64,000 nucleotides of DNA, taken from assembly GCA_001717025.1 (NCBI GenBank), contig MAGU01000051.1, forward strand, positions 227 to 64,226, written 5' to 3'. The translations under genes and the position numbers were made by a program. Shown here piece by piece: positions 3,704 to 53,197 of the stretch (position 1 is the first letter of the stretch; every line of letters begins with the position of its first letter). The notes below the pieces were generated by a model. The model worked only from the letters and a program-made list of their open reading frames with translations, did not search any database and was not told where the DNA came from. This stretch comes from Candidatus Methanomethylicus oleisabuli. Its GTDB lineage: Archaea; Thermoproteota; Methanomethylicia; Methanomethylicales; Methanomethylicaceae.

Positions 3704-3963
3704 CCGCGGATGCAGACGACGTCTTGGTTTGCTTGACCGCATTCATTAGCGCTACTGCAGCAGGGGCAGGCGCCTAGCATTGACGGACGCGGCATGGTAG
3801 GGCGGCATCCGCCGTCGCCTCAAGGTCTGAATCACAATCACCTCGCGCGTTCCTGCCTCTATCGCCATCCGCCGCTCTCTGAACTCATCTACGCCGCCTG
3901 ACCAATTCAAATAATTAGGTGCGTGAACCTAGTGCTATAGGAAGGTAAGCGCCATTGCGGACG

Positions 3964-5211: not shown

Positions 5212-5214
5212 GCG

Positions 5215-9501: not shown

Positions 9502-9699
9502 CTAGTCGCACCCTTGATGACGATATCTGCCCTTATTACTATAACTTTAATCTTTCTTGGAGATAAAACTGCGATTGACTACTTAGTGAAAGAAGAATAG
9601 GGCACCTGTGCATAAAGGTGGGCAACGGCTGACAGTTGAAACACTCATCACCGACGAGGCTTTAATATTAGCCAAATATCTAAGAGATGAAGTAGAGCT

Positions 9700-17330: not shown

Positions 17331-18683
17331 CTAAACGCCCTTGGCATACTTCACGGCCCTCTCGACAAGCTCCGCAGCCTTGCCTGTGTAGTTCTCCGCG
17401 TTTGTAAGTGCCTCGATCTCGCTCCTACTCAGGCACGCCGTTACCTCCGGCATCTCTGCCAGCACGTCTCCGATGGCTTTTCCCTCGTTGAACGCCTTAA
17501 CTGAAGCCTGCCTCATAAGCTCGTGGGCCTTCTGCCTCCCAACCCCCCTCTTTGCAAGAGCCATCATCACAGCCTCCGTCAAGATCATTCCCTTCGTTAG
17601 TCCGAGGTTCCGCCTCATATTCTCAGGGAATACCCTCAGCCCTCCCATAACCTTGGTAGTCGTGATGAGCATCTCATCAAGGATTATGAACGCCATCGGG
17701 ATCTCAAACCTCTCGCTACTGGAGTCGGTCAGATCCCTCTCATGCCAGAGTGGCACGTTCTCCAGAGCCGGTACTACTAGCCCTCTCATCACCTTTGCCA
17801 GCCCCGAGACCTTCTCGCAGTCCACTGGGTTCTGCTTGTGTGGCATCGTGCTGCTCCCTACCTGGGCCTTAGCTTCGAACCCCTCCGCCGCCTCCATTAT
17901 CTCCGTCCGCTGCAGGTTCCTGATCTCGGTAGCAATGCGATCGAGCCCCGAGGCTGCGATGGCTGCCCAGCATACGAACTCTGCGATCCTGTCCCTACAC
18001 ACAACCTGCGTGGTGATGACTGCCGGGCTGAGCTTGAGCCTCTCCATGACGAGCCTCTCTACCATTAATGCCTTATCGCCTTGGCTTGACATCGTCCCAA
18101 CGGCACCACTCATCTTGCCTGCCACGAGGCGCGGCTTCAGTTCCCTGAGCCTCTCCAAGTTCCTTGCCGCCTCAGCCGCATAGACCGCCATCTTGAACCC
18201 GAACGTTATCGGTATCGCATGCTGACCGTGAGTCCTCCCGACCTCCACCAAATCCTTATACTTCAACGCGAGGTCACAGAGCAGATCCTTGAGCGACTCA
18301 ATTCTTGCTTCGAGCAGATCCACGCCATCCCTCATGATCAATGCCCAGCTCGTATCGACGATGTCGTAGCTAGTCGCCCCCCAGTGGACATACTTCCCAC
18401 TGCCATCGGGGCCGCACTCCTCTGACAGGGCCTCTACCATTGCCATGATGTCGTGATGAGTCTTCTTCTCCCTCTCCTTGACCTTCTCCGGGGTAACCTT
18501 ACCCGTGTTTGCGTTCCTGCCTATCTCCTCAGCAGCCTCTTTTGGGATCTCTCCAAGCTCGGCGAGAGCATAAGCGAGCGCAGCCTCAACATCCAAGTAG
18601 CGCTGCAGCCGCCCCTCCTCATCGAAGAGTTCCTTCATCTCCTTGCTTCCATACCTTCCAGTGTCGATTGGGCAGACGGGCAT
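17331..18683 (-). CDS. purB: adenylosuccinate lyase
   Basis: Fumarate-lyase signature GSSTMPHKQNPV and HWGATSYDIVDT motif. The PurB-like N-terminus is RYGSKEM. The start is placed at the internal Met. Confidence 0.8.
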   Translation of the reverse strand: MPVCPIDTGRYGSKEMKELFDEEGRLQRYLDVEAALAYALAELGEIPKEAAEEIGRNANTGKVTPEKVKEREKKTHHDIMAMVEALSEECGPDGSGKYVHWGATSYDIVDTSWALIMRDGVDLLEARIESLKDLLCDLALKYKDLVEVGRTHGQHAIPITFGFKMAVYAAEAARNLERLRELKPRLVAGKMSGAVGTMSSQGDKALMVERLVMERLKLSPAVITTQVVCRDRIAEFVCWAAIAASGLDRIATEIRNLQRTEIMEAAEGFEAKAQVGSSTMPHKQNPVDCEKVSGLAKVMRGLVVPALENVPLWHERDLTDSSSERFEIPMAFIILDEMLITTTKVMGGLRVFPENMRRNLGLTKGMILTEAVMMALAKRGVGRQKAHELMRQASVKAFNEGKAIGDVLAEMPEVTACLSRSEIEALTNAENYTGKAAELVERAVKYAKGV

Positions 18684-18805
18684 TTTATCAAATCTCCAAG
18701 TGAGTGAGTTACTCCGCAAACCATTCATAAACTTACGCATTATCTTAATATACAACTTGTGCCCGTTTCAATTTGCTGATTTGAGCCTGTTTTGATCTAA
18801 CAAAA

Positions 18806-18830
18806 GTGTACAAATTATTATTTTGTACAC
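18806..18830. promoter_or_regulatory. perfect inverted repeat GTGTACAAA-N7-TTTGTACAC immediately upstream of a TATA-like box (tttatata) preceding the hydrogenase operon
   Basis: 9-bp perfect palindromic arms read directly from the sequence. AT-rich promoter context at about 18836-18850. The first plausible ATG of the operon is at 18899. Confidence 0.5.
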
Positions 18831-18898
18831 ATTCGGATAATTTATATATGACTTATCACAAATATACAACCAGCATTGTTGTTAGTGGGTGTTTTTCG

Positions 18899-19270
18899 AT
18901 GAATGGACACATTACACCTAAGCCCAAGCCCGCCTCTCAAAGGCTCTCTCTCATCATCGCCTTCTCGCTTATGGCTGTCGGTCTTATCGGCGTAATGGCT
19001 GCGAGTATTTACTCTGATTTTATCTTGCTTATGGCTTTTGTCGAGATAACTACCGTCGCGATGTTCTTCATCCTCATCCTCAGCCTTATCCCGGCGTACT
19101 TCCCTGATCATGTTGATGCCGAGTCTATATTCTACAGCGGTCTTGCAAAGGAGCCGTATATGTCAAACGATTGGGTATACCGGCCGAACGTCCCTCTGCT
19201 CAACGTTGGATACGACCACGATTGGGACCACTATTATGACCGGAAGGCAGTGAGGGTGGAACCGCAATGA
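18899..19270 (+). CDS. small two-TM membrane protein, first gene of the hydrogenase operon (possible Mrp-like small subunit)
   Basis: Two strongly hydrophobic helices. Its stop overlaps the start of the next gene (ATGA at 19267-19270). The listed ORF start (GTG 18806) lies inside the palindrome and is rejected. Confidence 0.4.
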   Translation: MNGHITPKPKPASQRLSLIIAFSLMAVGLIGVMAASIYSDFILLMAFVEITTVAMFFILILSLIPAYFPDHVDAESIFYSGLAKEPYMSNDWVYRPNVPLLNVGYDHDWDHYYDRKAVRVEPQ

Positions 19271-20826
19271 TGGAGAACTCGATCCTTCCATTGGTAGCCC
19301 CCCTCGCCCTCCTCGTCGGCGGCATACTTGCCCCGCTCGTCTCGAAGGGAGGGAAGGGGATGCTCTCCATACTCTCCGTATTCTTCATCGCAGCTATTGG
19401 CGCAAACACGTTCATGCTCCTCACCGTCGGTGAGGGCGCCCTTTACTATCCTGCGCCGGCGGGCATAGTCATAAACGCCTCGTCAGCATTTGTCATCGAG
19501 CTGGCGCTAATCCTGGGCTTCCTGGGCGCGGTGTACAGCCTACAGTACTTCGTAGACAGCACCCACTTGGGCGCCTTCTACACCCTGTACTGCATATTCG
19601 TCGCATCCCTCGTCGTGATGGCGTCCTCCTTCAACATGCTCATAATATATACCTGCTTCGAGGCTAGCACCATCGCCGGCGGCATCCTAATACTGTTCAC
19701 CCGTAGGACGTCCGCCACGAAGGCGGCGGTCCGCTTCTTCATAATGAGCGTCATTGGCGCTTTGATAATTCTCGTAGGCATACTCTACCAGAACTATGCC
19801 ACTGGCGCCTTCATGCTCAGCGCATCCGCATTCGAGTCGCTGGCAGCGTCCGACCTGGTCTTGCTAGCCGCCATATACTCCATAGGATTCAGCATTAAGG
19901 TCGGCGTCTTCCCGTTTGGACTCCTGTGGCTCCCGTCCGCCCATAGCGAGGCGCCAACCCCAGTCAGCGCCATACTCAGCGGGGTGATGGTCCAGATGGC
20001 GGCATTCGCCGTCGCCCGCATAGTCGGAGTGATGGCGCCCCAGAGTGCAACGCTTGCTTATCTGCTGATCGGCATGGGCGCCCTCAGCGTGATAGTGGGC
20101 GCATCGCTCGCGGCGGTTGAGGCGACCGCTGGAAGCAAGTGGTCCCGCTTCCATGTAGGCGCGGTCAATATAAGGGGCATAAAGCGCATATGGGCGTTCT
20201 CCACCTCCTCTGAGGTCGGCGTCTTCTACATCCTCATCGGGCTAGGCATACTCGAACCTGCCCTGTTGCCGGTCTTCTTCGTGGGCATCCTCCTCCACTT
20301 CCTCAATCACGGTCTCGCAAAGGCGCTACTCTTCTTCGACAGTGGCTTCATCATTGAGACGAGCAGGGTCGCGGACCTCTCTGTGCTCAAAGGCATGGGG
20401 CGCAAGCTCGGCCCTAACGGGATGACCTACCTAGTCGGCGGCTTCTCGCTTGCTCTGATACCTGGAACCCTTGGATACACCACGTTCAGGGAGTTCACGT
20501 CCCCCAACGTCAGCATATACCTTACCGCTACGGTCTTCGCCGCTGCAGCGCTCATATTCTTCTCCACCGTTTACTCGTTGCGCTGCTTCGCGTCTGGCAA
20601 GCCCAAAGCTAAGGTGGAGTACTTGGGGACGCAGGAGGGGGGCCACGCGCTGCTCAGACTACCTGGCATAGTCATAGCCGTATGCATCCTCGTCCTTGGC
20701 ATAATAATTACTCTGGGGGCAAACAACATAGCCTTCCAAGGCACATTCATGCAGATTGAGGAGTGGCTCGAGATGGCAGCCACGACGATATTCCACGAAA
20801 CGGCGGTATTGGGGGTGGGCCTCTAA
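19267..20826 (+). CDS. NuoL/HyfB/MnhD-family antiporter-like membrane subunit of group 4 hydrogenase
   Basis: LWLPSAHSEAPTPVSAILSGVMV matches the proton-antiporter (PF00361-type) signature WLPxAxxGPTPVSAL. About 14 TM helices. Confidence 0.8.
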   Translation: MMENSILPLVAPLALLVGGILAPLVSKGGKGMLSILSVFFIAAIGANTFMLLTVGEGALYYPAPAGIVINASSAFVIELALILGFLGAVYSLQYFVDSTHLGAFYTLYCIFVASLVVMASSFNMLIIYTCFEASTIAGGILILFTRRTSATKAAVRFFIMSVIGALIILVGILYQNYATGAFMLSASAFESLAASDLVLLAAIYSIGFSIKVGVFPFGLLWLPSAHSEAPTPVSAILSGVMVQMAAFAVARIVGVMAPQSATLAYLLIGMGALSVIVGASLAAVEATAGSKWSRFHVGAVNIRGIKRIWAFSTSSEVGVFYILIGLGILEPALLPVFFVGILLHFLNHGLAKALLFFDSGFIIETSRVADLSVLKGMGRKLGPNGMTYLVGGFSLALIPGTLGYTTFREFTSPNVSIYLTATVFAAAALIFFSTVYSLRCFASGKPKAKVEYLGTQEGGHALLRLPGIVIAVCILVLGIIITLGANNIAFQGTFMQIEEWLEMAATTIFHETAVLGVGL

Positions 20827-21386
20827 TGGTGACGGCACACAAGTATAGCCCTCCGGCATTCCACGTTCTCGCACCGAGGATCCAGAAGCGGCTAGGCGAG
20901 CCGATAACCGTCCCCGGGACTGATGAGAAGGTTACCGACTTGGTCGTTGTCCACGACCCAAACAAGTGCACTGGTTGCAACCAGTGCATGATCGGGTGCG
21001 CCTACAAGCACTACCGGACGTTCGACAGGAGCTTCGCTCTGCTCTACGTCAACGAGTCGCCAGACAAGAACGGCTTCTACGTCAATGCCAACTGCCAGCA
21101 CTGCGTCTTCCCCATGTGCCTAGCATCGTGCCCCAAGGAGGCGATATACAAGGACGAGAAGGGTATCGTCCGGATCTCTCCTCTGCTATGCGTTGGCTGC
21201 GGCACTTGCAACCAGGCTTGCCCTATTGGCATACCACGCCTGGATGATGAACGCAAGATCTTCGTGAAGTGCGACTTCTGCGACGGCGATTACCCGATGT
21301 GCTACCAGATGTGCAGTACAGGCGCGCTGAAGTTGCTGCCTCGCAAGGAGGCGTTCGAGCTGGTCAAGAAGCTTAGGAGCGTGTGA
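20826..21386 (+). CDS. HycB-like ferredoxin subunit with four [4Fe-4S] binding motifs
   Basis: Four motifs: CTGCNQCMIGC, CQHCVFPMCLASCP, CVGCGTCNQACP, CDFCDGDYPMCYQMC. The start ATG overlaps the upstream stop (TAATG). Confidence 0.8.
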   Translation: MVTAHKYSPPAFHVLAPRIQKRLGEPITVPGTDEKVTDLVVVHDPNKCTGCNQCMIGCAYKHYRTFDRSFALLYVNESPDKNGFYVNANCQHCVFPMCLASCPKEAIYKDEKGIVRISPLLCVGCGTCNQACPIGIPRLDDERKIFVKCDFCDGDYPMCYQMCSTGALKLLPRKEAFELVKKLRSV

Positions 21387-21390
21387 TCAG

Positions 21391-21744
21391 GTGTCAAGCG
21401 AACCGAAACCTCTGAAGAGCTGGATCAGGCTGCTTGAGGCAGGGAAGAAGATGACGTCCCACAAGCAGGACGAAGAGAGCATACTCTACCCGCTACGCCG
21501 GACCTTCAGGCCTGTCGCTCCTGACATCACCAAAGGGTCGCTTAAGCGGGACTTTGAGCAGGGTCTGGTATACTACGTTGGTGACGAAATCGAGGATGAC
21601 CGGGCAGCCTGCGGACTCGATAGGCTGCCCCCCACTGGACGGATTTACCCCGACGCCGTTGTGAAGAAGAGGGTGATCCTCGAGGAAGCAGGCGTCTTCA
21701 AGAAGACCGCCTACAACAAGAAGAAGGGGACTTTTGATTACTGA
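21391..21744 (+). CDS. hypothetical 117-aa protein embedded in hydrogenase operon
   Basis: Hydrophilic and charged, with no Cys motifs. It sits between the hycB-like and CCG-protein genes with 4-6 nt spacers. Confidence 0.4.
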   Translation: MSSEPKPLKSWIRLLEAGKKMTSHKQDEESILYPLRRTFRPVAPDITKGSLKRDFEQGLVYYVGDEIEDDRAACGLDRLPPTGRIYPDAVVKKRVILEEAGVFKKTAYNKKKGTFDY

Positions 21745-21750
21745 ACGCGA

Positions 21751-22788
21751 TTGGTGGTACCCATGTCTGTTGCTAAACCAAATTTAAACTCAAAGGTCGA
21801 ATCGAATAATGCCTCGAATGGCGCCTCAGAGTCTCTGAACTTATCCAGCAACAATGTGAAACCGACGAAGTATGGCTACTTCTTGGGCTGCGTGATGCCC
21901 GCGAAGATGCCGTGGGCGGAGAAGGCAACGATGATCATATCAAAGCACCTTGGGCTGGACTTTGGTTACATGAAGGAGGCGCTCTGCTGCGCTAGACCTG
22001 GGGTGTGGAAGGCAATAAGCCCTGACTGGTGGCTCAGCCTAACGGCGCAGAACCTCGCAAATGCCGAAAAGCAGGGGATAACCATCGTCGATACATGCAA
22101 CGGTTGCTGGATCTCACACTACGAGGCCATAAAAGAGCTCACCGAGGAGCCCGAGAAGATGAAGATGGTCAACGATCAACTCGCGAAGGTCGATCTGCAT
22201 CTTAAGGGAGACGTAAAGGTCAAGCATTACCTTGAGCTCCTCCACGACGATGTGGGCATGGAGAAGATCGTCTCACGCGTCGTGCGCCCGCTAACCGGAA
22301 TAAGGGTCATGAGGCACATCGGTTGCCACGCAAGGAAGCACGACGAGACGTTGCCAAACGATTTCGACGAGATCCTCAGGGCAACGGGTGTGGAGATCAT
22401 CGACACTCCCTACGACAAGACCTGCTGCGGCCTATTGCTATACTTTGCAGACCCAAACCAAGCCATACTGGAGCGCATAGGTAAGAAGATGAAGACCGCC
22501 CAGGCACTAGATGTGGATGCATACGTGATCATCTGCTCGGGTTGCTACGACCAGTTCGAGAGGGGTGTTAAGATATACCGGGATGAGAAGGGAATAAGCT
22601 TCGAGACCCCCATTATACACTTCTCGGAGCTGCTTGCACTAGCGTTCGGCTACGAGCCGGAGGACTTTGGCATGACGCGCTGCCGACCCATAGCCGTTGA
22701 CAGGTTCATCGAGAAGGTCAAGGCAATAACCGCTGAGAACGCCAAGAAAGCGGCGGGGGCAAAGGAGAAGGGGGATGGTTTGCCATGA
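21751..22788 (+). CDS. HdrB-like protein with two complete CCG (cysteine-rich) domains
   Basis: First domain C-X31-CC-X35-CxxC (GCV...EALCCARPG...CNGC). Second domain C-X32-CC-X35-CxxC (GCH...KTCCGLL...CSGC). All ten Cys of the noncubane-cluster-binding pattern are present. Confidence 0.8.
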   Translation: MVVPMSVAKPNLNSKVESNNASNGASESLNLSSNNVKPTKYGYFLGCVMPAKMPWAEKATMIISKHLGLDFGYMKEALCCARPGVWKAISPDWWLSLTAQNLANAEKQGITIVDTCNGCWISHYEAIKELTEEPEKMKMVNDQLAKVDLHLKGDVKVKHYLELLHDDVGMEKIVSRVVRPLTGIRVMRHIGCHARKHDETLPNDFDEILRATGVEIIDTPYDKTCCGLLLYFADPNQAILERIGKKMKTAQALDVDAYVIICSGCYDQFERGVKIYRDEKGISFETPIIHFSELLALAFGYEPEDFGMTRCRPIAVDRFIEKVKAITAENAKKAAGAKEKGDGLP

Positions 22789-24497
22789 AATTCGAGTCCG
22801 ATCCAACGTTGGTCGACTTCGTCAGGACCGAGGTGGTGCCAGAGGGGACCTCATTCAGGGCTCTCCACGAGAACAGGGTTGCCGTAAGGATCAACGCCGA
22901 GGACGCCGACAGGCTGGCTGGGAGGTTCATGAGTAGATTCAATGCCCGCCTCATCCACGAGACCGCCGTGGACATGGAGGTGGAGGGGTTCGACATGGTC
23001 TACATCTACGACTTCTCCAAGGTGAAGGACCGGCTGGTAGTCGTACTTGAGGCACGGATATCTAAGGACGACCCGTCTCCGCCCTCGATTGCAAAGATCA
23101 CTTGGCAGGCGAGCTGGGCAGAGCGCGAGATACACGACCTCCTCGGCATCAGCCCCAGGGGGACGCCAGATCCGCGCAAGCAGTTCCTGCCATATGAGTG
23201 GCCAAACGCGGCAGAGAGCGGGGCAGCTCCGCCGCCACCAGAAAAGGGCCCCTCTGGTCCGCAGGAGAAGTGGATTCCGCTCGGCATCGCGCCTAACGAC
23301 GCCTATGCAACGCTTATCCCTATAGGCCCATACCATCCGGGCGTTATAGAGGGGCAGACCGTCTATGTCAAGGTTGAGGGCGAGACCGTCGTCTCTGCCG
23401 ACATAAAGACCGGCTTCCACCACAGGGGCATACAGAAGCTCATCGAACGCCGGGGCTACCACAAGGGCGTCTTCGCCGCTGAGAGGGTCTGTGGCATCTG
23501 TAGTGCTGCGCACGGCCTCGCCTACGTGACTGCGTGCGAGAACCTATACGAAGCCGAGGTGCCGGACAGGGCGCTCTACTTGAGAACCCTCCTGCTGGAG
23601 CTGAACAGGGTTCACAGCCACCTCCTCTGGATAGGCGTAGTGGCGGACGTCATTGGCTGGAAGACCGGCTTCCACCTCTCGTGGGGTATCAGGGAGCGCG
23701 TTATGGACATCATCGAATCGATAACGGGTAACAGGGTCAACTACGGCATATGGCGCATCGGTGGCATGAGCAGGGACGTGTCCAAGGAACTGGCAGAGAG
23801 GGTGCTGCCGGCAGTCAAGGCGCTCAAAGCCGAGATGGCCCAGCTTCTGCCCGAGATTGCTGCGCATTCGGTCGTGAAGTCGAGGCTTGTGGGGGTCGGG
23901 CCCCTCTCTTATGCGGACGCATTCGACGGTGGCGCGGTAGGGCCGGTCGCAAGGGCAAGCAACTGGAGGATAGACGTCAGGGCAGACAACCCCCCTCACG
24001 CGATGTACGACCCCAAGGTCATCAGCTGGGAGGTCGTCACTGATGAGGGATGCGACACCTATGGGCGCACGCTAGTGAGGGTTAAGGAACTTCTCGTCTC
24101 TTCTGAGATCATTATCCAGTGCCTCGAGTACTTGGCAAAGACAACCGGAGATATCCGGCTAGAGCCGAAGGTCATACCCGTGAACTCTGAGGGGATAGGG
24201 CTCAACGAAGCTCCCAGGGGGGAGCTAGTCCATTACGTCAGGGCAAGCGAGTTCAACATGAACCTGCCGCAGGCATACAGGATACGGACGCCAAGCTACA
24301 GGAACAACGCACTGATTCCAAAGATGCTAGTTGGCGCCAACTTGGCAGACGTGCCTGTCGTGATGGGCAGCACCGACCAGTGCCTCGCATGCACCGACCG
24401 GTTTGAGGTGATCCGCGAGGGGGGCGGCGCATCGCAGTCCATGAGCTGGGGCGAGCTCGTGGCGCTAGGCAGGAGGGGACGGTTCGGGAGGGTTTAA
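22785..24497 (+). CDS. group 4 [NiFe]-hydrogenase large subunit (NuoC-NuoD-like fusion, HycE-type)
   Basis: The N-terminal 150 aa is NuoC-like. RVCGICSAAH (RxCGxCxxxH) and C-terminal DQCLACTDR (DxCxxCxxR) supply the four Ni-Fe cysteine ligands. Length is 570 aa. Confidence 0.85.
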   Translation: MKFESDPTLVDFVRTEVVPEGTSFRALHENRVAVRINAEDADRLAGRFMSRFNARLIHETAVDMEVEGFDMVYIYDFSKVKDRLVVVLEARISKDDPSPPSIAKITWQASWAEREIHDLLGISPRGTPDPRKQFLPYEWPNAAESGAAPPPPEKGPSGPQEKWIPLGIAPNDAYATLIPIGPYHPGVIEGQTVYVKVEGETVVSADIKTGFHHRGIQKLIERRGYHKGVFAAERVCGICSAAHGLAYVTACENLYEAEVPDRALYLRTLLLELNRVHSHLLWIGVVADVIGWKTGFHLSWGIRERVMDIIESITGNRVNYGIWRIGGMSRDVSKELAERVLPAVKALKAEMAQLLPEIAAHSVVKSRLVGVGPLSYADAFDGGAVGPVARASNWRIDVRADNPPHAMYDPKVISWEVVTDEGCDTYGRTLVRVKELLVSSEIIIQCLEYLAKTTGDIRLEPKVIPVNSEGIGLNEAPRGELVHYVRASEFNMNLPQAYRIRTPSYRNNALIPKMLVGANLADVPVVMGSTDQCLACTDRFEVIREGGGASQSMSWGELVALGRRGRFGRV

Positions 24498-24499
24498 CC

Positions 24500-25474
24500 A
24501 TGGTCGACCATGTCTTCACGATCCTATCGATAGCGCTGATAATTCCAATCAGCCTCTTCCTTGGCGTGATGTATTCGTTTCTCATAAGGAAACTAAGCGC
24601 AAGGTTCCAGTGGAGGGTCGGTCCAATCGTCAGGATGTACGGCGACCTCGCCCCCGTCATCGGGTCGACTAGAATCTGGCAGCCGCTTTACGACATACTC
24701 AAGCTCTTCGGGAAGGACGCCTTGATCCCCTCAACAGCTCATAAGAGGCTCTTCACTTGGTCGCCCTACCTCTCCCTCTTCTTCAGCTTCGCAGCAGTTC
24801 TGTTCATTCCGTTCCCCGGCTTGCCGCTGCTATCCGGCACCCCTTACAGCCTCATCATAGCATCCTACCTGCTGATCGCGTCGATATTGTTCACGATACT
24901 CGGTCCAGCCGCCAGCGGATCTCCTTGGGGCGCCATAGGCGCGAGGCGCGAGGTTGAACTCTTCCTTGTCGCTGAGCTGAGCTTCGTTGCAAGCCTATTC
25001 GTGGTCGCGGTAACGAAGGGCACGCTTGTCATATCAGAGCTCGCTGGTTTCGTTGGCAGCATCCCCATGATGCTGGTCACGGCGCTCGCGGGCATAACGA
25101 TGTTCGCAGCCATGCTTGGCAAGCTGCACATCAAGCCGTTCGATATGCCTGAGGCAGAGTGCGAGATCGTTGCAGGACCATACACCGAGTACTCGGGCAA
25201 GCTACTCGGCACATACTTCCTAGCCAAGGTATTTGTTCTATACAACATGGTTGCCCTGTTCATCGCAGTATTCCTGCCCCCCCTGTCATCTTCAGTACTG
25301 TGGTTGCCCCTCTATGTCGTCGCAGCGCTGGTTCTAATATTTCTGCTTGCCGTCGTCCATGTCCTGAACCCAAGGTACACCATTGCAAAGGCGCTAATGT
25401 GGTACACAAAGATCATAGTCCCGTTGGTTATAGTTGGTTTCATAGCTGCATTCTTTCTGAGGGTGGTTGCATAG
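24500..25474 (+). CDS. NuoH/HycD/EchB-like membrane subunit
   Basis: 324 aa with about 8 TM helices and NuoH-like conserved loops. It starts 3 nt after the large-subunit stop. Confidence 0.8.
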   Translation: MVDHVFTILSIALIIPISLFLGVMYSFLIRKLSARFQWRVGPIVRMYGDLAPVIGSTRIWQPLYDILKLFGKDALIPSTAHKRLFTWSPYLSLFFSFAAVLFIPFPGLPLLSGTPYSLIIASYLLIASILFTILGPAASGSPWGAIGARREVELFLVAELSFVASLFVVAVTKGTLVISELAGFVGSIPMMLVTALAGITMFAAMLGKLHIKPFDMPEAECEIVAGPYTEYSGKLLGTYFLAKVFVLYNMVALFIAVFLPPLSSSVLWLPLYVVAALVLIFLLAVVHVLNPRYTIAKALMWYTKIIVPLVIVGFIAAFFLRVVA

Positions 25475-26062
25475 ATGTCCACACACATCAAGATCCTGAA
25501 ACAGGTCATACAAAAATACAGCTCGCCGATGACCCTGAACTATCCTTCCAGCATCGACAAGAAACGTATGTACAGCCAGATACCGGAGGGTTTGAGGGGT
25601 TTCCTCGAGAGGGATGAGGAGAAATGCGTCGGTTGCCGGGCGTGCTACATGGTATGTTCTGGAAGGGCGACTAAGATCTTCGATACTGCCGACAAGAGGA
25701 CGGTGCAGGTCTTCCACTTCAGGTGCACTTACTGTGCGCACTGCGAGGAGTGTTGCCCTGAAGATGCGATAAAGCTGACCTCAAAGTTCGAGCTTGCCGT
25801 AACTGACAGGAATGACCCGAAGGCATACGTCAACACTGACCTAAAGATGCTCTCCTGCAAGGCATGCAACAAGCCTTACCTGCCTGAGAAGATGCAGAAG
25901 CGGGTGTTTGAGAGACTGAGCGAGAAGATAAATCCGAAGGTAAAGGGCGTCGTGGTCGAGGACTACCACAAGACCGAGGGGTTCTGCCCGGAGTGCAAGA
26001 GGGTCCGTGGGGTGCTGCTCGACACACACACCAAGAAGCACATATGGCTGGAGGTCGTTTAG
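25475..26062 (+). CDS. NuoI/HycF-like 2x[4Fe-4S] ferredoxin subunit
   Basis: CVGCRACYMVCSG and CTYCAHCEECCP motifs. Contiguous with neighbouring genes. Confidence 0.75.
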   Translation: MSTHIKILKQVIQKYSSPMTLNYPSSIDKKRMYSQIPEGLRGFLERDEEKCVGCRACYMVCSGRATKIFDTADKRTVQVFHFRCTYCAHCEECCPEDAIKLTSKFELAVTDRNDPKAYVNTDLKMLSCKACNKPYLPEKMQKRVFERLSEKINPKVKGVVVEDYHKTEGFCPECKRVRGVLLDTHTKKHIWLEVV

Positions 26063-26515
26063 ATGGGTCTCATAGACAGGGCTAGGATATACTCGCCATG
26101 GGTTTATCACTTACACTGCGGCGGATGCAATGGTTGCGATATAGAGACGCTTGCCGCGCTGGCACCCCGTTTCGACGTTGAGCGTTTCGGCATTCAGTTG
26201 GTTGCATCGCCTAGGCACGCCGACATACTCTTGGCTACGGGGTGTGTCCCGAAGCAATTCATCCCTATGGTCAAGAGGGTCTACAACCAGACCCCTGACC
26301 CCAAGGTGGTCGTTGCAATAGGCGGGTGTGCCTGCGGGGGGAGCCTCTTCTACGATGAGGACCCTGAGAACTATGCCATACTTGGATCGCCTGATATGCT
26401 GATACCGGTCGATGTATATGTCCCCGGGTGCGCCCCGAAGCCAGAGCAGATCATCAATGGAGTAGTCCAGGGGATACTAAAACTGAACGAAAAGGCAACG
26501 CGCAGGAGTAAGTGA
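26063..26515 (+). CDS. NuoB/HycG-like [NiFe]-hydrogenase small subunit
   Basis: HCGGCNGCDIE, GGCACGGSLF and PGCAPKPEQI correspond to the HycG/EchC proximal-cluster cysteines. Confidence 0.85.
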   Translation: MGLIDRARIYSPWVYHLHCGGCNGCDIETLAALAPRFDVERFGIQLVASPRHADILLATGCVPKQFIPMVKRVYNQTPDPKVVVAIGGCACGGSLFYDEDPENYAILGSPDMLIPVDVYVPGCAPKPEQIINGVVQGILKLNEKATRRSK

Positions 26516-26545: not shown

Positions 26546-27409
26546 ATGAGATCAGGCGAAACGGTAATCTATGCGATGGATTGCATCGAAGGCATGAGGC
26601 GCTACGTGAAGGACCGGCAGGTCGACGCAATAGTGACCTCTCCGCCTTACAACTTGGGCATCAGGTACGGCAAGTATGATGATGCCATCCCACGGGCAGA
26701 TTACCTCCGTTGGATGACGAAGGTCGCTGAAGAGTGCAAGCGGGTCCTCAGTGACGATGGGTCATTCTTCCTCAACATAGGGTACTCGTCGAAGGATCCT
26801 TGGGTGGCATGGGAGGTCGCCTTCCAACTGCGGAGCATCTTCGAGCTTCAGAACGTCATCCACTGGATAAAGTCGATCGCCATAGAGAAGTCTCAGGTAG
26901 GCGGGCTCGCGAATATGTGCGGCGACGTGGCTGTGGGGCACTATAAGCCGATCAACAGCGACAGGTATCTGAACAAATGTCACGAGTATATATTTCACTT
27001 CACAAAGGGGGGCGATGTGCCGCTGGACCGGCTGGCCAACGGCGTCCCTTACCAGGACAAGAGCAATGTGCGGCGATGGGGCCGCACAGCAAGGGACTTG
27101 AGGGACCGCGGCGATACTTGGTTCATACCTTACGAGACGATCAAATCGAGCAAAAACGAGCGCCCCCACCCGTCGGCATTCCCTCCTAAGCTTCCAATGA
27201 TGTGCATCAAGCTACACGGTCTATGCAAAACGCATCTGGTCATGGATCCTTTCATGGGGATCGGGGACACCGCTATCGCATGCGCTCGGCTTGGCGTGGG
27301 GTGCATAGGCTTCGAGATAGACGAGTCTTACGTAAAGGTCGCTGAAGAGCGGCTGGCAGCCGAGAGGCGGGCGCTACAGTGGCAAAGTAATGCTTTGTTG
27401 ACGCATTAA
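26546..27409 (+). CDS. DNA methyltransferase, beta-class (SPPY motif IV before FxGxG motif I)
   Basis: VTSPPYNLG is near the N-terminus and HPSAFP...[12 protein letters not shown] near the C-terminus. This is the PF01555-type order. GC content is close to the host average. Confidence 0.85.
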
Positions 27410-27428: not shown

Positions 27429-27971
27429 ATGACCTCTGAACCCTCTGCGCCGAGAACTTTCAGGATCGATGCCGATGTAATGCGGACCCTTGAGGAGGAG
27501 GCAAGGAAGCAAGGTGCTACGGTGAACGGCCTCACGTGCCGGATACTCAGGAAGTATGTGAAGATCGGCGTCAGGCTTGAACCCTTCGGCATGCTATACA
27601 TGCCGAGAACCCACATCATATCGCTGGTCAATGCTATCGACGACAAGACCCTTGCCGGCATCGCATCGGACATGGGCAGGCGTACGGCGAAGGAAGCGAT
27701 ACTGCAGCTCTACGGCGACCTCAGCATGCCTAGCTTCAAACAGTTCATCGAGATATACCTATGCGGCTATTCAAACTGGGCGTCCTACTACGAGGAGGAC
27801 CGAGGAAGCTTCGTCGAGATACGCATGGGCCACAGTATGGGCGACAAGTGGTCTCTCTTCATGAAGTCCTACCTAGAATCTGCACTCGACGAGATGGTCG
27901 GTAAGAAGCCAAACTTCAAGTACGTCTCTTCATTCAGCCTAATATTAGAGCTACGCAAGGATGCCACGTAG
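27429..27971 (+). CDS. ribbon-helix-helix (CopG/Arc-like) N-terminal domain protein with uncharacterised C-terminal domain
   Basis: RTFRIDADVMRTLEEEARKQGATVNGLTCRILRKY fits a beta-strand-helix-helix RHH pattern. It lies 20 nt downstream of the methyltransferase on the same strand. Confidence 0.45.
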   Translation: MTSEPSAPRTFRIDADVMRTLEEEARKQGATVNGLTCRILRKYVKIGVRLEPFGMLYMPRTHIISLVNAIDDKTLAGIASDMGRRTAKEAILQLYGDLSMPSFKQFIEIYLCGYSNWASYYEEDRGSFVEIRMGHSMGDKWSLFMKSYLESALDEMVGKKPNFKYVSSFSLILELRKDAT

Positions 27972-27973
27972 GG

Positions 27974-28417
27974 TCACGCACACCGCTCAGCTGGGCGCAT
28001 CTTCTGCTCCAGCCTGTAGGCCCTGGCGTTCGTCCCTCGTACAAAAACGTCCTTCGGGTGGGTGGAGGCGAGCCTATACGTCGCTTGGATCTCGTGCAGC
28101 AGATGCGGCTCTATGTAGATATCGCGCCCGCCCTCAGAAAACCGGAGACTGCACACTGTGCCCGCATCACCTTTTTTTTCAATTACGACGAACGTGTTCT
28201 CGCCCTCGATCCTATATGTCGCTATGTCATAGTCTGCCGTTAACGACTCGTCATGTCCGTCTATAACGTGCACCAGCTCAGTAGCGTACGATGCGACCAC
28301 CTCAGCGGCAATCCCCTTCATTATCTGGTGCTTCCTGTCTCCATGGAAGATCTGTAGGTAATGTGTCATCTCTCTCTTCTGTTTGTCCGATACCATCCAA
28401 AGGAGCGCCATTGTCAT
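27974..28417 (-). CDS. hypothetical protein with degenerate calcineurin-like phosphoesterase-like motifs
   Basis: MVSDKQ, IFHGD and VIDGHDE resemble SDTH, CGD and GHTH of small metallophosphoesterases, but metal-ligand residues are substituted. Very tentative. Confidence 0.3.
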   Translation of the reverse strand: MTMALLWMVSDKQKREMTHYLQIFHGDRKHQIMKGIAAEVVASYATELVHVIDGHDESLTADYDIATYRIEGENTFVVIEKKGDAGTVCSLRFSEGGRDIYIEPHLLHEIQATYRLASTHPKDVFVRGTNARAYRLEQKMRPAERCA

Positions 28418-28493
28418 TCCTCACCTCGTATTGTTTCGCCACGTGGCGCCTCCTCTACGCGCAGGTGGCCGGAGTGAGAGCCTTCCCCGCTGA

Positions 28494-28874
28494 TTAAACA
28501 CCAAGCGAGCGTAGCAGCTTATCGACATCTTGGAGGTCCATGTCCTCGCCCTTCTCCTCCTCCCCCTTCTTCGCCAACGGCTGTTGTGGCAACATCGGCA
28601 CGCTATAGCCAACCGCCTCCTTCTCCCCGAGAGTTATGTAACCGACAACTCTGCCCTTCATGCCGCGGATCTCGATAGGGCTATCTATCTCGATGTGCAG
28701 GCTCGCTGAGAATTTGCCCTCCTCGATCTGCCTCTTGATATACTTGTAAACTGCTTCCTCTATGTAACGCTTAAGCTCCTCGCTCATCTGGCGTTCACAT
28801 ATTCCAATCAGTCCATTGAAATAATAAGGATTGCCGCTTTGATAGAACGCGCCAACCCCAATCAAAAACCGCAA
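28494..28874 (-). CDS. hypothetical protein (97-126 aa)
   Basis: ORF with an acidic C-terminal tail. The likely start is the internal MSEELKRY. No motifs. Confidence 0.3.
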   Translation of the reverse strand: MRFLIGVGAFYQSGNPYYFNGLIGICERQMSEELKRYIEEAVYKYIKRQIEEGKFSASLHIEIDSPIEIRGMKGRVVGYITLGEKEAVGYSVPMLPQQPLAKKGEEEKGEDMDLQDVDKLLRSLGV

Positions 28875-29070
28875 CCGGTCTCTGAACGGCAGGGCCCCTT
28901 CATACCACTCCGCCTCTTGGGTCTATGCCTTGGCGAAGCTAATGACAGCCGGCGCCCTCTTGCCGAGAACGATGCCTGCCATGAACATTGCGAGGCCCGC
29001 CAGAATGCAAATCTGCGCGGCATCGTCGCAATCCAATAGATATAAGGCTGCTCCTGCACATAAGAACAGG

Positions 29071-29610
29071 ATGCCTGCTAGCAGAAGCCTCCAAGGCAAC
29101 GCCCCCAATCCCCCGAACATAATCGCTTACGTGGTAACCGCTGCGGCGATAATCTTGGGTGTGTACTATCTTCCTAATTACCTCTTTCTCGAGATCTCGA
29201 CTGCTAACCACGCCGCATCTCTGCTCTCTGTCGTCGGAATAGACGTCCAGTCTGCCTGCACCGGCACCGCCGCGTTTCTCGACGACATCCGAATAGTGAA
29301 GGAGTGCACCGGCATACAGGTCATCTCTGTCTTCTTAGGTCTTATTATTCCGCTGCCAAACGCAGGATGGACGAGGAAGCTTTTGACCATATCGATTGTT
29401 TCTGCAGCCCTCTACGTCGCAAACGTGGTTCGAATAGCCCTCGAATTCTCTCTCGTCCACTTCGGGATCCTGCCGTGGTCGCTCGCCCATTATCCTATGA
29501 GCCTCCTGCTAGGGGTAATCGGCGTGGTCGTGCTCGCAGTAATTGCCGATGAGGTGCTGCCCGAGTTCGGCGCCTTCCTGTTATCTGCCATCCGCAGGCG
29601 CCCTCAGTAA
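29071..29610 (+). CDS. archaeosortase/exosortase-family membrane protein (short form)
   Basis: Polytopic. Conserved Cys in the VKECTGIQ context, and about 40 aa later the NxxR motif (VANVVRIAL), matching the exosortase/archaeosortase active-site spacing. It is convergent with and overlaps the 3' end of a PGF-CTERM protein gene. The start is uncertain (listed ORF 28930). Confidence 0.5.
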   Translation: MPASRSLQGNAPNPPNIIAYVVTAAAIILGVYYLPNYLFLEISTANHAASLLSVVGIDVQSACTGTAAFLDDIRIVKECTGIQVISVFLGLIIPLPNAGWTRKLLTISIVSAALYVANVVRIALEFSLVHFGILPWSLAHYPMSLLLGVIGVVVLAVIADEVLPEFGAFLLSAIRRRPQ

Positions 29611-31521: not shown

Positions 31522-32625
31522 TCAAGCATTGAGCGCACCTGTTGTTGAGAGAACCTTCACCGAGCGGGAATTGAACGCAATCCAGACCGTTTTCCCGCGG
31601 TCAAGGTTCGCCCCTATGAACGCATTTGCCATCAAAACAACATGGAATATGTGCCCTCTGTCGATCCGCACGCTGACCTTCACTATCGCACCAAGATCGG
31701 CATAACCCTCGACGATGCCCTTGAACAAATTTTCTGACTCCACATCAGGATTAGTTATGTGTATATCGTCCGAACGTATGCCAAAAACACATTTAAGCGC
31801 CTCACCTTCACCACACCCTCGCCATCCAGACCCCCCTGCCGACGCTTTTATTATCGCCCCTCCAACATCTACCTCGAGTAGACCATTGCTGCAACGCACC
31901 ACCTGTCCATTGAATATATTCTCATAACCAAGGAAACGCGCAACAAACTCGTTCTTGGGATTAGAGGCTATCTCCTTTGGCGATCCAGTCTGCATTATCA
32001 TCCCATCCCTCATGACGGCTATTCGGTTAGCGATACTGAATGCCTCAATCTGGTCGTGGGTCACGTGCAAAAATGAAGTTCCAGCCTCCGATTGCCTCCT
32101 CTTTAGGTAGTCCCGTAGCATCTGCCTAGTTTCAGGATCTGTTGCGCTCAAAGGCTCGTCCAGCAGCACAAGCCTTGGCTCGATAGCCATCACCCTGGCC
32201 AGCGCCACCTTCTGCATCTCCCCGCCACTGAGCGAGGCAGGAAACCTGTCAGATAGGTCAAGAATACCAAGCTCTGCGAGGACGCGGTCTGTCTTTGCCC
32301 TCAGCTGCGCCGCAGGCATGCCCCTAATCCTCAATCCGAACTCTACGTTTCGTCTCACCGTCATGTGAGGGAATAGCAGGCTCTGCTGTGGGACATACCC
32401 TATGCCGCGCCTCTCCGTGGGGATGTCCGTGATGTCTAATCCATCAAGCAAGATCCTTCCCGACTCCTGCCTGTGGATGCCCATTATTGTTTCCAGCAGC
32501 ATAGTCTTTCCGGCACCCGTTGGTCCTAGGATTACAAAATACTCGCCCGATCTTACCTCGAGTCGTATGTCCTTCAGCGAGAGGTCGCCGCACGATCTGT
32601 TGACCCCTTCGATTTTGAGGCTCAC
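31522..32625 (-). CDS. molybdate/tungstate ABC transporter ATP-binding protein with C-terminal TOBE domain
   Basis: Walker A GPTGAGKT, ABC signature LSGGEMQKVALAR, Walker B LLDEP. The about 120-aa C-terminal extension is typical of ModC/WtpC TOBE domains. Confidence 0.85.
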   Translation of the reverse strand: MSLKIEGVNRSCGDLSLKDIRLEVRSGEYFVILGPTGAGKTMLLETIMGIHRQESGRILLDGLDITDIPTERRGIGYVPQQSLLFPHMTVRRNVEFGLRIRGMPAAQLRAKTDRVLAELGILDLSDRFPASLSGGEMQKVALARVMAIEPRLVLLDEPLSATDPETRQMLRDYLKRRQSEAGTSFLHVTHDQIEAFSIANRIAVMRDGMIMQTGSPKEIASNPKNEFVARFLGYENIFNGQVVRCSNGLLEVDVGGAIIKASAGGSGWRGCGEGEALKCVFGIRSDDIHITNPDVESENLFKGIVEGYADLGAIVKVSVRIDRGHIFHVVLMANAFIGANLDRGKTVWIAFNSRSVKVLSTTGALNA

Positions 32626-34581: not shown

Positions 34582-34585
34582 GAGA

Positions 34586-50329: not shown

Positions 50330-50333
50330 TACC

Positions 50334-51644: not shown

Positions 51645-51648
51645 TTTT

Positions 51649-53127: not shown

Positions 53128-53197
53128 AAGATGACCCCGCCTGCTTTACTATAAACATTGGTATTTACCGCAATGCTTTTAAACTTTTTTTATACAT

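Follow-up and report, generated by a model that had tools for sequence, protein, structure and literature searches.

The closest described counterpart of the locus analysed here is the Ehd complex of the Methanomethylicia, in which a membrane [NiFe] hydrogenase is encoded beside HdrBC and an antiporter subunit, and for which it is proposed that H2 oxidation serves both to reduce CoM-S-S-CoB and to translocate ions (PMC9723716; bioRxiv 10.1101/2022.08.18.504445; PMC12700198). Borrel et al. (2019, as cited in PMC9723716) proposed that the complex is an H2:CoM-S-S-CoB oxidoreductase that translocates ions. Two further complexes are related to it: the disulfide-reducing hydrogenase (Drh) of Methanocellales, which is upregulated in syntrophic co-culture (PMC6046458), and Ehe, defined in non-methanogenic Culexarchaeia that lack full CoM/CoB biosynthesis (PMC9723716). 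Biochemical data on the Ehd, Drh or Ehe complexes were not found in the literature surveyed.

The window analysed in this study is a 64,000-nucleotide stretch of DNA from Candidatus Methanomethylicus oleisabuli. It carries a nine-gene operon that, judged by its gene content, is an instance of the Ehd complex of the Methanomethylicia (formerly Verstraetearchaeota). The operon shares lineage, gene set and gene order with published Ehd, with no substantive difference, and fits the description of a group-4 [NiFe] hydrogenase core with HdrB(C) and an antiporter-like subunit (PMC9723716); an intact HdrB in an Ehd operon is already known as a genomic prediction. The surroundings in the window are of housekeeping character (purine synthesis, Moco, transporters and DNA methylases), and the window contains no tRNA or Rfam features by which the organism could be placed, its taxonomy resting on protein homologues and a genome scan. 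Further hdr genes and mvh genes are absent from the window. Since mcr, CoM and CoB genes are absent as well, we infer a methanogenic lifestyle from relatives only. One of these, M. petrocarbonis, grows by methanol reduction with H2 (PMC12244365).

The HdrB-like protein and its cluster ligands

The open reading frame at positions 21751-22788 (forward strand, as are all features below) encodes an HdrB-like catalytic subunit, distinguished by two five-Cys CCG motifs, matches to the Pfam CCG family, alignment with the solved HdrB 5ODC_B and an AF2 model. Translation most likely begins with the ATG at 21763, residue 5 in the reading frame, which would give a protein of 341 aa. This start is preferred because a Shine-Dalgarno-like GGTGGT, kept in three congeneric genomes, lies 5' of it, and because the resulting length equals that of a 99%-identical database protein (P0001). 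Residues 1-33 form a disordered extension that varies between lineages (residues 1-39 are of low complexity), and neither transmembrane nor hydrophobic segments are predicted in the protein.

Each of the two domains contains the five-Cys motif CXnCC(G)XnCX2C that defines the CCG domain (PMC10861901). The first motif, C-X31-CC-X35-C-X2-C (Cys47, 79, 80, 116 and 119; positions 21889-22107), aligns with Cys9, 41, 42, 78 and 81 of 5ODC_B, and the second, C-X32-CC-X35-C-X2-C (Cys192, 225, 226, 262 and 265; 22324-22545), with Cys153, 193, 194, 231 and 234; one extra Cys is found at 311. The spacing range of the family is reportedly CX31-39CCX35-36CXXC. The strict motif C-X31-39-CC-X35-36-C-X2-C occurred at least once in 14 of 200,000 shuffles of the protein, the real sequence having two copies, and Pfam CCG (PF02754) gave two matches with 80.4 bits (cut-off, 20.6). 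A preliminary description of this DNA had called the match to the noncubane pattern exact. The Cys spacings are as it gave them, and that of the first domain is identical to 5ODC_B (31/35/2), but the second domain (32/35/2) departs from the 39/36/2 of 5ODC_B while staying inside the range reported for the family. The first motif reads CCA instead of CCG; the HdrB of M. thermolithotrophicus has CCP at the same place.

Among five solved HdrB sequences aligned over their full length, 5ODC_B was the best (E=3e-53; query residues 40-323; 36% identity). All ten Cys pair one-to-one with the crystallographic ligands of the two noncubane [4Fe-4S] clusters in this methanogen HdrB. The two proteins also share the motifs LGC(V/I)MP, CC..PGV, CNGC, H.GCH, CCG and C..C..QF(D/E)RG. 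The AF2 model (pLDDT 85) superimposes on 5ODC_B with a TM score of 0.89 and an rmsd of 2.4 A (Foldseek E=4.6e-23), whereas the CCG proteins outside the HdrB family (LutA, EtfD and 3kwl) were far weaker matches; a different fold is thereby contradicted. Features that set the window protein apart from 5ODC_B are the disordered extension at its N-terminus and a helix at its C-terminus.

Of the NCBIfam models, HdrB scored highest (208.2 bits), followed by SdhE (86), TfrB (43), GlpC (37.5) and GlcF (22.7). The last four scores lie far below their curated cut-offs (500, 385, 278 and 333 bits, respectively), and membership in these families fails. The HdrB score is itself under the equivalog cut-off of TIGR03288 (345.15 bits); by sequence the protein is a member of the HdrB family, though not a canonical TIGR03288 equivalog. 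None of the ten Cys varies in 69 of the 71 homologues, which represent three clades and reach down to 30% identity, and the remaining two homologues are N-terminally truncated; within the Ehd clade, 68 alignment columns are invariant. The word-based search behind these figures retrieved hydrogenase-linked HdrB clades only, and canonical HdrB was compared through PDB sequences. The encoded HdrB is full-length, with all ligands of two predicted noncubane [4Fe-4S] clusters.

A nine-gene operon with a group-4 [NiFe] hydrogenase

The hdrB gene is the fifth of nine densely packed genes, co-operonic and translationally coupled with those of an Ech/FHL-like group-4 [NiFe] hydrogenase. The first gene (18806-19270) encodes a small membrane subunit with two hydrophobic segments; its reading frame spans 154 aa, with the true start probably further downstream, and its product exceeds the threshold of no Pfam family. 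Homologues of this protein (42-75% identity) occupy the same place in other Methanomethylicia loci and are also found inside Drh and Ehe-like clusters. The stop of this gene overlaps the start of the next (19267-20826), which encodes an antiporter-like ion-translocating subunit of the NuoL/M/N, MbhH and HyfB type (519 aa; Pfam Proton_antipo_M, 1.3e-22). Its closest solved relative is MbhH (6cfw_H, 1.7e-22), with which it shares the Glu of TM5 and the Lys residues of TM7 (K..G..P...WLP.AH..AP) and TM8 (H..NH...KALLF).

The third gene (20826-21386) begins with an ATG overlapping the upstream stop (TAATG) and encodes a HycB-like ferredoxin of 186 aa with four [4Fe-4S] clusters predicted from 16 Cys in four cluster motifs (Pfam Fer4_11, 7e-20). 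Its closest solved relatives are a hydrogenase Fe-S subunit (9mqx_E), HycB3 of HDCR (7qv7_A) and HycB of FHL (7z0s_B). The subunit is not an HdrC.

The fourth gene (21391-21744) encodes a protein of 117 aa with a single Cys and no Pfam or NCBIfam family. The C-terminal half of this protein and the C-terminal tail of HdrC are homologous. Used as a single sequence, the protein matched residues 132-183 of the 185-residue HdrC 8rvu_c with E=0.0067, and its family profile (A1) matched residues 131-183 with E=5.3e-5. Small proteins encoded in the Drh and Ehe clusters have the motif R..GL..(L/I)PPT in common with this protein, and JGI annotates one homologue as heterodisulfide reductase subunit C. 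Modelled alone with AF2, the protein is unstructured (pLDDT 46), as expected of a clamp that folds on its partner. Instead of an HdrC with two [4Fe-4S] clusters, the operon thus has this cluster-less tail protein and the HycB-like ferredoxin, and HdrA is absent from both the operon and the window. On our reading, these assignments refine the published label HdrBC: the four-cluster ferredoxin is HycB-like, and HdrC is reduced to a separate, cluster-less C-terminal tail.

Downstream of hdrB, and overlapping its stop (ATGA), lies the gene for a [NiFe] large subunit with fused NuoC- and NuoD-type parts (22785-24497; 570 aa; Pfam Complex1_30kDa, NiFeSe_Hases and Complex1_49kDa). Its closest solved relatives are MbhL (6cfw_L, 1.6e-74) and HycE (7z0s_E, 1.8e-73). 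Both motifs that hold the Ni-Fe ligands are preserved, RVCGICSAAH at residue 234 and DQCLACTDR at 531 aligning with RMCGICSFSH and DPCLSCTDR of MbhL, and with four predicted Cys ligands of the Ni-Fe site the subunit is of the true hydrogenase type rather than the Nuo/Fpo type. The last three genes encode a NuoH/MbhM/EchB-like membrane subunit with multiple hydrophobic segments (24500-25474; 324 aa; Pfam NADHdh, 3.3e-50), a NuoI/HyfH/HycF-like subunit with two [4Fe-4S] clusters (25475-26062; 195 aa; NCBIfam hydrogenase 4 subunit H, 1.6e-29) and an additional CxxC...CxxC at its C-terminus, and a NuoB-type small subunit carrying the proximal [4Fe-4S] cluster (26063-26515; 150 aa; Pfam Oxidored_q6, 5.9e-29).

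Conservation of the locus and related complexes

The order of the nine genes is kept in all 17 Methanomethylicia loci that have enough flank, including those of Ca. Methanomethylicus mesodigestus V1, the cultivated Methanosuratincola verstraetei LCB70 and M. petrocarbonis LWZ-6. The genes are co-linear, with identities of 47-93%, the NuoB-type subunit being the most conserved (74-93%). HdrB, the reading frame of which is intact in all loci, is 52-84% identical across them and 83-84% identical to that of Ca. Methanomethylicus mesodigestus V1. A genome scan located Ehd-type loci in Methanomethylicia only.

Drh of Methanocellales has the same module of HycB-like subunit, small HdrC-tail protein and HdrB beside NuoCD-NiFe, NuoH, NuoI and NuoB, and its HdrB is 41-46% identical to the window protein. 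It differs in having no antiporter-like subunit and in the place of the small two-TM gene, which follows hdrB. The Ehe complex of Culexarchaeia and an Ehe-like cluster (L004) share the core of hydrogenase, HdrB, HycB-like subunit, small protein and antiporter, but in the Ehe-like order NuoB comes after HdrB; this cluster adjoins genes for HdrA2B2C2, SdhA and GcvH, and its HdrB is 35% identical to that of the window.

Among complexes of other function, FHL-1 of E. coli (7Z0S), together with Ech and MBH, is the nearest in composition: the operon encodes homologues of HycE (with the fused NuoC domain), HycG, HycF, HycB, HycD and HycC, and in both FHL and Ehd a catalytic head is joined via HycB. 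The head of FHL is FdhF, whereas that of Ehd is HdrB with the HdrC tail, and in Ehd the Ni-Fe site is proposed to be the source of the electrons (H2 uptake) instead of their destination. Canonical HdrB has HdrA (flavin bifurcation), HdrC and Mvh as partners in place of the membrane group-4 hydrogenase. HdrDE and the Fpo-like/HdrD systems of Methanosarcina and Methanomassiliicoccales resemble the window locus in two CCG motifs and in membrane-associated heterodisulfide reduction that is independent of HdrA. HdrD, however, is a ferredoxin domain fused to CCG domains and receives its electrons from cytochrome b/methanophenazine or the Fpo-like complex, whereas the window protein is composed of CCG domains only, without the N-terminal 2x[4Fe-4S] domain, and shares its operon with a large subunit of the true hydrogenase type.

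Substrate, electron donor and energy coupling

The reading that we favour, with a probability of about 65%, is that the protein is the catalytic HdrB subunit of an energy-conserving Ehd complex, for which we infer what the substrate is, which way electrons run and that ions are coupled. H2 would be oxidised at the Ni-Fe site, and electrons would pass from the proximal cluster of the NuoB-like subunit through the two clusters of the NuoI-like and the four of the HycB-like subunit to the noncubane pair in HdrB. The HdrC-tail protein would clamp HdrB and contribute to the lining of the substrate pocket. The transfer of electrons from H2 to the heterodisulfide has a free energy of about -52 kJ/mol (E0' -414 mV vs. 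-143 mV). In the proposal made in the literature, this reaction would power the export of ions by the NuoH-like and antiporter-like subunits. Ehd would then unite heterodisulfide reduction and energy conservation in one complex for H2-dependent methyl-reducing methanogenesis.

The substrate pocket bears on this reading in two ways. In the HdrB of M. thermolithotrophicus (5ODR), the substrate is contacted by Arg14, Gly46, Gly198, Arg201 and Arg240, of which Gly198 contacts the CoM sulfonate and Arg201 the CoB carboxylate (PMC13261682). Three of these five positions are kept in the Ehd clade, where Lys52, Gly84 and Arg271 (for Arg14, Gly46 and Arg240, respectively) are invariant. The same Lys, Gly and Arg are found in the Drh clade of Methanocella, bona fide users of CoM and CoB, whereas the Ehe-like clade has Met, Glu and Lys in their place. 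The other two contacts fall in the loop after the second CCG, for which the alignment is uncertain and the model core has its lowest confidence (pLDDT 77-79): CCGAGGGVRAR of 5ODC_B appears there as CCGLLLYFADP, and the hydrophobic CCGLLLYF(A/S)DP of the whole Ehd clade has no basic residue, with Arg201 and Gly198 absent. The corresponding Drh loop, CCGLQANLAD(R/K), has one.

The remodelled loop, together with the sub-threshold equivalog score, could mean that the same complex acts on a disulfide or polysulfide instead of CoM-S-S-CoB, for example a protein-bound or low-molecular-weight one, as has been proposed for Ehe, whose relatives lie beside GcvH, SdhA and HdrA2B2C2 and whose hosts have incomplete CoM/CoB biosynthesis (PMC9723716). 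We consider this improbable, because the three retained contacts set Ehd with the Drh of true methanogens and apart from the Ehe-like clade, and because Ehd-type loci are confined to a methanogen lineage. Moreover, Hdr copes with considerable variation in both halves of its substrate (PMC13261682), and a basic residue of the HdrC-tail protein, in which K48, K52, R53, R71, K92 and K93 are invariant, could stand in for Arg201. The preliminary description had left the active site either disulfide- or quinone-reactive, and only the disulfide half of this suggestion agrees with the data. CCG domains do occur in SdhE, GlpC and GlcF, to which the protein has weak NCBIfam matches, but a quinone- or methanophenazine-reactive or membrane-anchoring subunit of this kind is very unlikely here and was rejected: HdrB is the best-scoring family (208 bits vs. 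86, 37 and 23) and supplies all top structural matches, the protein has no hydrophobic segment, it forms the far end of a soluble Fe-S chain and has soluble Fe-S subunits on either side, and the HdrC-tail partner is kept. A decayed relic, for which nothing but the low equivalog score speaks, has a negligible probability; ligands invariant in every untruncated homologue, the 68 invariant columns, conserved synteny with intact reading frames and a confidently predicted fold effectively refute it, and the functional site claimed by the preliminary description is upheld.

A mechanistic difficulty for energy-conserving, H2-driven heterodisulfide reduction concerns its polarity. In all characterised members of the superfamily (Ech, Eha/Ehb, MBH, FHL and complex I), ions are known to be exported as electrons enter the substrate at the NuoD site and to be imported as this substrate is oxidised. 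An Ehd that oxidises H2 and exports ions would therefore need the opposite polarity. This would be avoided if the donor were reduced ferredoxin and the complex an H2-evolving, ion-exporting enzyme of the Ech/FHL type, in which HdrB gives the Fe-S chain an additional exit or entry point, the outcome being either a ferredoxin:heterodisulfide oxidoreductase or H2 cycling within the complex. Such an arrangement would preserve the established polarity of all characterised group-4 hydrogenases. The four-cluster HycB-like subunit belongs to a type that, in FHL, HDCR and AOR, serves as the docking site for external redox partners, and a ferredoxin-oxidising Fpo-like/HdrD scheme has been proposed for Methanomassiliicoccales and discussed for Methanomethylicia (bioRxiv 10.1101/2022.08.18.504445). 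Electrons entering at HycB would, however, short-circuit to HdrB (+270 mV downhill) and bypass the coupling site, and energy conservation would fail; it would also be hard to account for the intact Ni-Fe ligands, and the operon encodes no ferredoxin-reducing enzyme. A ferredoxin donor thus has, in our view, a small chance of being correct. If Ehd does gain energy from H2 and CoM-S-S-CoB, it would be the first member of the complex-I/group-4 superfamily to export ions while oxidising the NuoD-site substrate, with a re-engineered HdrB pocket (the Arg201 loop replaced) and an HdrC cut down to a cluster-less clamp, a combined proposal that we regard as possible but doubtful. Should it hold, the coupling polarity would be reversed, with electrons running outward to a distal high-potential acceptor.

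The biological interest of this hdrB gene lies in its Ehd operon context, which the preliminary description, dealing with the protein by itself, had missed. Methyl-reducing methanogens of the Thermoproteota must recycle CoM-S-S-CoB and gain energy from that single step. Six Methanomethylicia MAGs from Yellowstone reportedly lack hdrABC and mvhADG (bioRxiv 10.1101/2022.08.18.504445), and an alternative heterodisulfide reductase is therefore needed there. With HdrABC/Mvh reportedly missing from several such genomes, Ehd is the leading candidate for the terminal energy-conserving reductase. That role presupposes an intact HdrB active site, and its presence here confirms what the genome publications already assume.

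The HdrB-like protein and its CCG domains

The hdrB-like open reading frame (21751-22788, + strand) encodes a protein of 345 aa, whose cysteines are located at positions 47, 79, 80, 116 and 119 (first CCG motif; 21889-22107, +) and 192, 225, 226, 262 and 265 (second CCG motif; 22324-22545, +), with an extra Cys at position 311. Its translation reproduces to the residue the spacings given in the preliminary description, i.e., C-X31-CC-X35-C-X2-C and C-X32-CC-X35-C-X2-C. The exact match then claimed for both domains holds for the first, whose 31/35/2 spacing is the same as in HdrB of M. thermolithotrophicus, but not for the second (32/35/2 vs. 39/36/2); the 32/35/2 spacing reportedly falls within the published range of the family. 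The first motif reads CCA rather than CCG, and the M. thermolithotrophicus protein has CCP at the same place. Two matches to the Pfam CCG family (PF02754) were found (80.4 bits vs. a gathering score of 20.6). Shuffling the residues of the protein 200,000 times produced the strict motif at least once in just 14 cases, while the real sequence contains two, and the pattern is therefore not due to chance. The most likely start codon, judged from the sequence, is ATG 21763, which has GGTGGT on its 5' side, is kept in three congeneric genomes and gives a product of 341 aa, as in the 99% identical database protein P0001. The N-terminal stretch of the ORF (residues 1-39; 21751-21867) forms a low-complexity extension rich in Ser, Asn, Ala and Lys, which varies in length (approximately 3-45 aa) and sequence among genera.

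A phmmer search of all PDB chains gave five distinct HdrB sequences as the sole significant matches, the best being 5odc_B, the HdrB chain of the M. thermolithotrophicus HdrABC structure (E = 3e-53; query 40-323 on chain 2-291). In this alignment, as when the protein was aligned with 71 homologues by MAFFT, all ten cysteines fall on the 5ODC_B ligands Cys9/41/42/78/81 and Cys153/193/194/231/234. In HdrB and HdrD, which contain two CCG motifs, each motif provides the five Cys that hold one noncubane cluster (PMC10861901, PMC13261682). An AlphaFold2 model, built from an alignment of 29 clade members, reached a mean pLDDT of 85.2 and a pTM of 0.82, with residues 1-33 disordered. Foldseek placed 5odc_B first among PDB structures (E = 4.6e-23, target-normalised TM 0.89, rmsd 2.4 Å), followed by further HdrB chains, with other CCG proteins (3kwl, LutA and EtfD) far lower. 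Neither the alignments nor the model comparison gave any sign of a different fold or of misassigned ligands, the possibilities raised in the preliminary description.

The 71 homologues form three clades, and the ten cysteines are invariant in 69 of them, the two exceptions being N-terminally truncated entries. The closest clade (29 sequences, 51-76% identity) has 68 invariant columns, among others those of LGCVMP.K, CC.RPG, CNGC, H.GCH.R, CCGLL and CSGC.DQF.R. This conservation supports the view that the protein is not a decayed relic. A functional, disulfide-reactive noncubane site is a supported prediction, while the quinone-reactive alternative offered alongside it found no support.

The hydrogenase operon, its relatives and its surroundings

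The genomic context was not taken up in the preliminary description: the hdrB-like gene stands fifth in a hydrogenase operon of nine co-directional (+) genes, whose stops and starts overlap or nearly abut. It is preceded by genes encoding (i) a small protein with two hydrophobic segments (18806-19270), (ii) an antiporter-like subunit (Proton_antipo_M; 19267-20826; best solved relative MbhH), which keeps the TM5 Glu, TM7 Lys and TM8 Lys, (iii) a HycB/DmsB-type ferredoxin with 16 Cys and four cluster motifs (20826-21386), and (iv) a 117-aa protein without family assignment (21391-21744). It is followed by genes encoding (v) a fused NuoC/NuoD-type large subunit (22785-24497; MbhL, 1.6e-74; HycE, 1.8e-73) with intact Ni-Fe ligand motifs RVCGICSAAH and DQCLACTDR, (vi) a NuoH-like subunit (24500-25474), (vii) a NuoI/HyfH-like subunit (25475-26062) and (viii) a NuoB-like subunit (26063-26515). 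No hydrophobic segments were found in the hdrB-like, HycB-like or 117-aa proteins. The best solved relatives of the ferredoxin are HycB-type subunits of hydrogenase, HDCR and FHL; given these and its four clusters, its assignment as an HdrC-type two-cluster protein was rejected. The predicted architecture is that of an Ech/FHL-type group-4 [NiFe] hydrogenase with HdrB borne on its HycB arm; the layout mirrors that of FHL, except that HdrB takes the place of the formate dehydrogenase FdhF.

Exactly such a complex, together with the related Ehe, Drh and Ehg, was described by Kohtz et al. (2022; PMC9723716), where Borrel et al. (2019) are cited for the proposal that this complex, Ehd, links the oxidation of H2 with the reduction of CoM-S-S-CoB and with ion translocation. 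Ehd has been named in Yellowstone Methanomethylicia MAGs without hdrABC/mvhADG (bioRxiv 10.1101/2022.08.18.504445) and mentioned for Methanonezhaarchaeia relatives (PMC12700198). The product of the hdrB-like gene is thus assigned to the Ehd complex as its HdrB subunit, in a Methanomethylicus-like archaeon, and the operon is an instance of a system already known as a genomic prediction.

Scanning one genome per GTDB species revealed 23 close loci, all from Methanomethylicia, some of them carrying the submitter labels Nitrososphaerota or Thermoproteota. Among named relatives, Ca. Methanomethylicus mesodigestus V1 is the nearest (HdrB 83-84% identical), and the cultivated Ca. Methanosuratincola verstraetei LCB70 and M. 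petrocarbonis LWZ-6, with complete genomes, share 69-70% identity. The nine-gene order is the same in all 17 loci with enough flank (tblastn with the nine window proteins). In two Methanomethylicia loci, L019 (JACTUC010000005.1) and L021 (VGLU01000001.1), tblastn detected no antiporter gene, and they appear to be a Drh-like variant within the Ehd lineage; a small membrane gene there adjoins the HycB-like gene, upstream of the match at 7001. The next clade is Drh, the "disulfide-reducing hydrogenase" of Methanocella, upregulated in syntrophic co-culture (PMC6046458). Its HdrB is 41-46% identical, and it shares with Ehd the arrangement HycB-like/small protein/HdrB/NuoCD/NuoH/NuoI/NuoB but is devoid of the antiporter, which, with L019 and L021, indicates that this subunit is not an obligatory companion of the HdrB-hydrogenase core. 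The third clade, an Ehe-like cluster (HdrB approximately 35% identical), has co-located HdrA2B2C2, SdhA and GcvH.

The small two-TM protein of Ehd (18806-19270, +) has counterparts in loci L003 (8942-9214) and L004 (Ehe-like; 9320-9616), at differing cluster positions, and its C-terminal motif (F.CGLAK.PY or F.SGLAKEPY) is common to Ehd, Drh and Ehe-like clusters. It matches no known family and probably represents an as yet uncharacterised membrane subunit that only HdrB-linked hydrogenases possess. The NuoI/HyfH-like subunit (25475-26062) carries, besides two [4Fe-4S] motifs, four extra C-terminal cysteines (CKAC...CPEC; residues 128, 131, 171 and 174), which could form an additional metal site.

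An adenylosuccinate lyase gene (17331-18755) adjoins the operon, an adjacency kept in locus L001, and a long co-directional purine-biosynthesis cluster (PurQ/PurL, PurT-like, PurD, PurF-like and PurC) occupies 43656-54127 (-). Directly downstream of the operon lie an N6/N4 DNA methyltransferase gene (26546-27409, +) and three ORFs without Pfam family (27429-29610), which together may represent a restriction-modification system or mobile insertion; for a second such methyltransferase gene (9700-10620, +), the Pfam match is confined to the C-terminal part of the model. Two adjacent MoeA paralogues (3955-7200, +), the second fused to a PBP-like domain, suggest, along with an ABC transporter operon and an adjoining 485-aa protein whose C-terminal domain is Oxidored_molyb (31522-36043, -), that molybdenum/tungsten cofactors are a theme of the neighbourhood.

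A putative HdrC remnant and the substrate loop

Residues 63-114 of the 117-aa protein match the last 52 residues of HdrC (8rvu_c, 132-183 of 185), with E = 0.0067 for the single sequence and 5.3e-5 for a profile of 15 orthologues. The proteins of approximately 90 aa encoded before hdrB in an Ehe-like cluster and in Drh of Methanocella share the core motif R..GL..(L/I)PPT with it. Having one Cys only, the 117-aa protein would bind no cluster, and it is best described as a putative cluster-less homologue of the HdrC C-terminal tail. Since such proteins precede hdrB in all three types of cluster, the "HdrC" of these complexes appears to be split or reduced. HdrB and HdrC together form the heterodisulfide pocket (PMC13261682); the 117-aa protein may keep the role of clamping HdrB and lining this pocket, and the HycB-like subunit may have taken over electron delivery. 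The stand-alone AlphaFold2 model of the 117-aa protein is unstructured (pLDDT 46), which is uninformative, though expected of a clamp.

In 5ODR, CoM is contacted at its sulfonate by the backbone NH of Gly46 and Gly198, and CoB at its carboxylate by Arg201 and at its phosphate by Arg14 and Arg240 (PMC13261682). Arg14, Gly46 and Arg240 of 5ODC_B, in which the loop after the second CCG reads CCGAGGGVRAR, correspond to invariant Lys52, Gly84 and Arg271 in the Ehd clade, to Lys, Gly and Arg in Drh (loop CCGLQANLAD(R/K)), and to Met, Glu and Lys in the Ehe-like clade (loop CCGYPLML(Y/A)SV). The Ehd loop, CCGLLLYF(A/S)DP (in the window CCGLLLYFADP; 22423-22455, ORF residues 225-235), has no basic residue, and equivalents of Arg201 and Gly198 are absent from it in the alignment; it is the lowest-confidence part of the model core (pLDDT 77-79). 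At the three aligned positions Ehd sides with Drh of true CoM/CoB-using methanogens and not with the Ehe-like clade, which favours CoM-S-S-CoB as the Ehd substrate. The type complex of the Ehe-like clade, Ehe of Culexarchaeia, is proposed to act on an unspecified disulfide (PMC9723716), and Hdr tolerates considerable substrate variation (PMC13261682).

Proposed electron flow and coupling polarity

The scaffold of the HdrB active site and the Ni-Fe site are both intact, and a wire of 1 + 2 + 4 cubane Fe-S clusters between them is plausible; the membrane part includes one antiporter-like subunit with canonical charged residues and the NuoH-like subunit. The Ni-Fe site would oxidise H2, from where electrons would reach the two noncubane clusters by way of the NuoB-, NuoI- and HycB-like subunits. 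The E0' of the H+/H2 couple is -414 mV. With -143 mV for the heterodisulfide (PMC10861901), approximately 52 kJ/mol is available. CoM-S-S-CoB would bind between the noncubane clusters and undergo cleavage and release by two one-electron steps, following the proposal for HdrABC (PMC13261682, PMC10861901). According to the literature proposal, the available energy would drive ion export.

In Ech, Eha/Ehb, MBH, FHL, Fpo and complex I, ions are exported when electrons flow into the substrate of the NuoD/NuoB site; when that substrate is oxidised, be it H2 (Ech/Eha) or quinol (reverse electron transfer), the gradient is spent. By our reasoning, the published Ehd model would require the opposite polarity, i.e., ion export with H2 oxidation at the NuoD site. 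One possibility is that Ehd couples with a polarity that has no precedent; another is that it does not pump in the export direction at all. Ferredoxin may instead be the physiological donor, with HdrB as a side outlet, but the coupling site would then be short-circuited.

What interest the operon retains concerns the split HdrC, the remodelled loop at the substrate site and the question of polarity, all of which can now be addressed by experiment, since Methanosuratincola strains are in culture.
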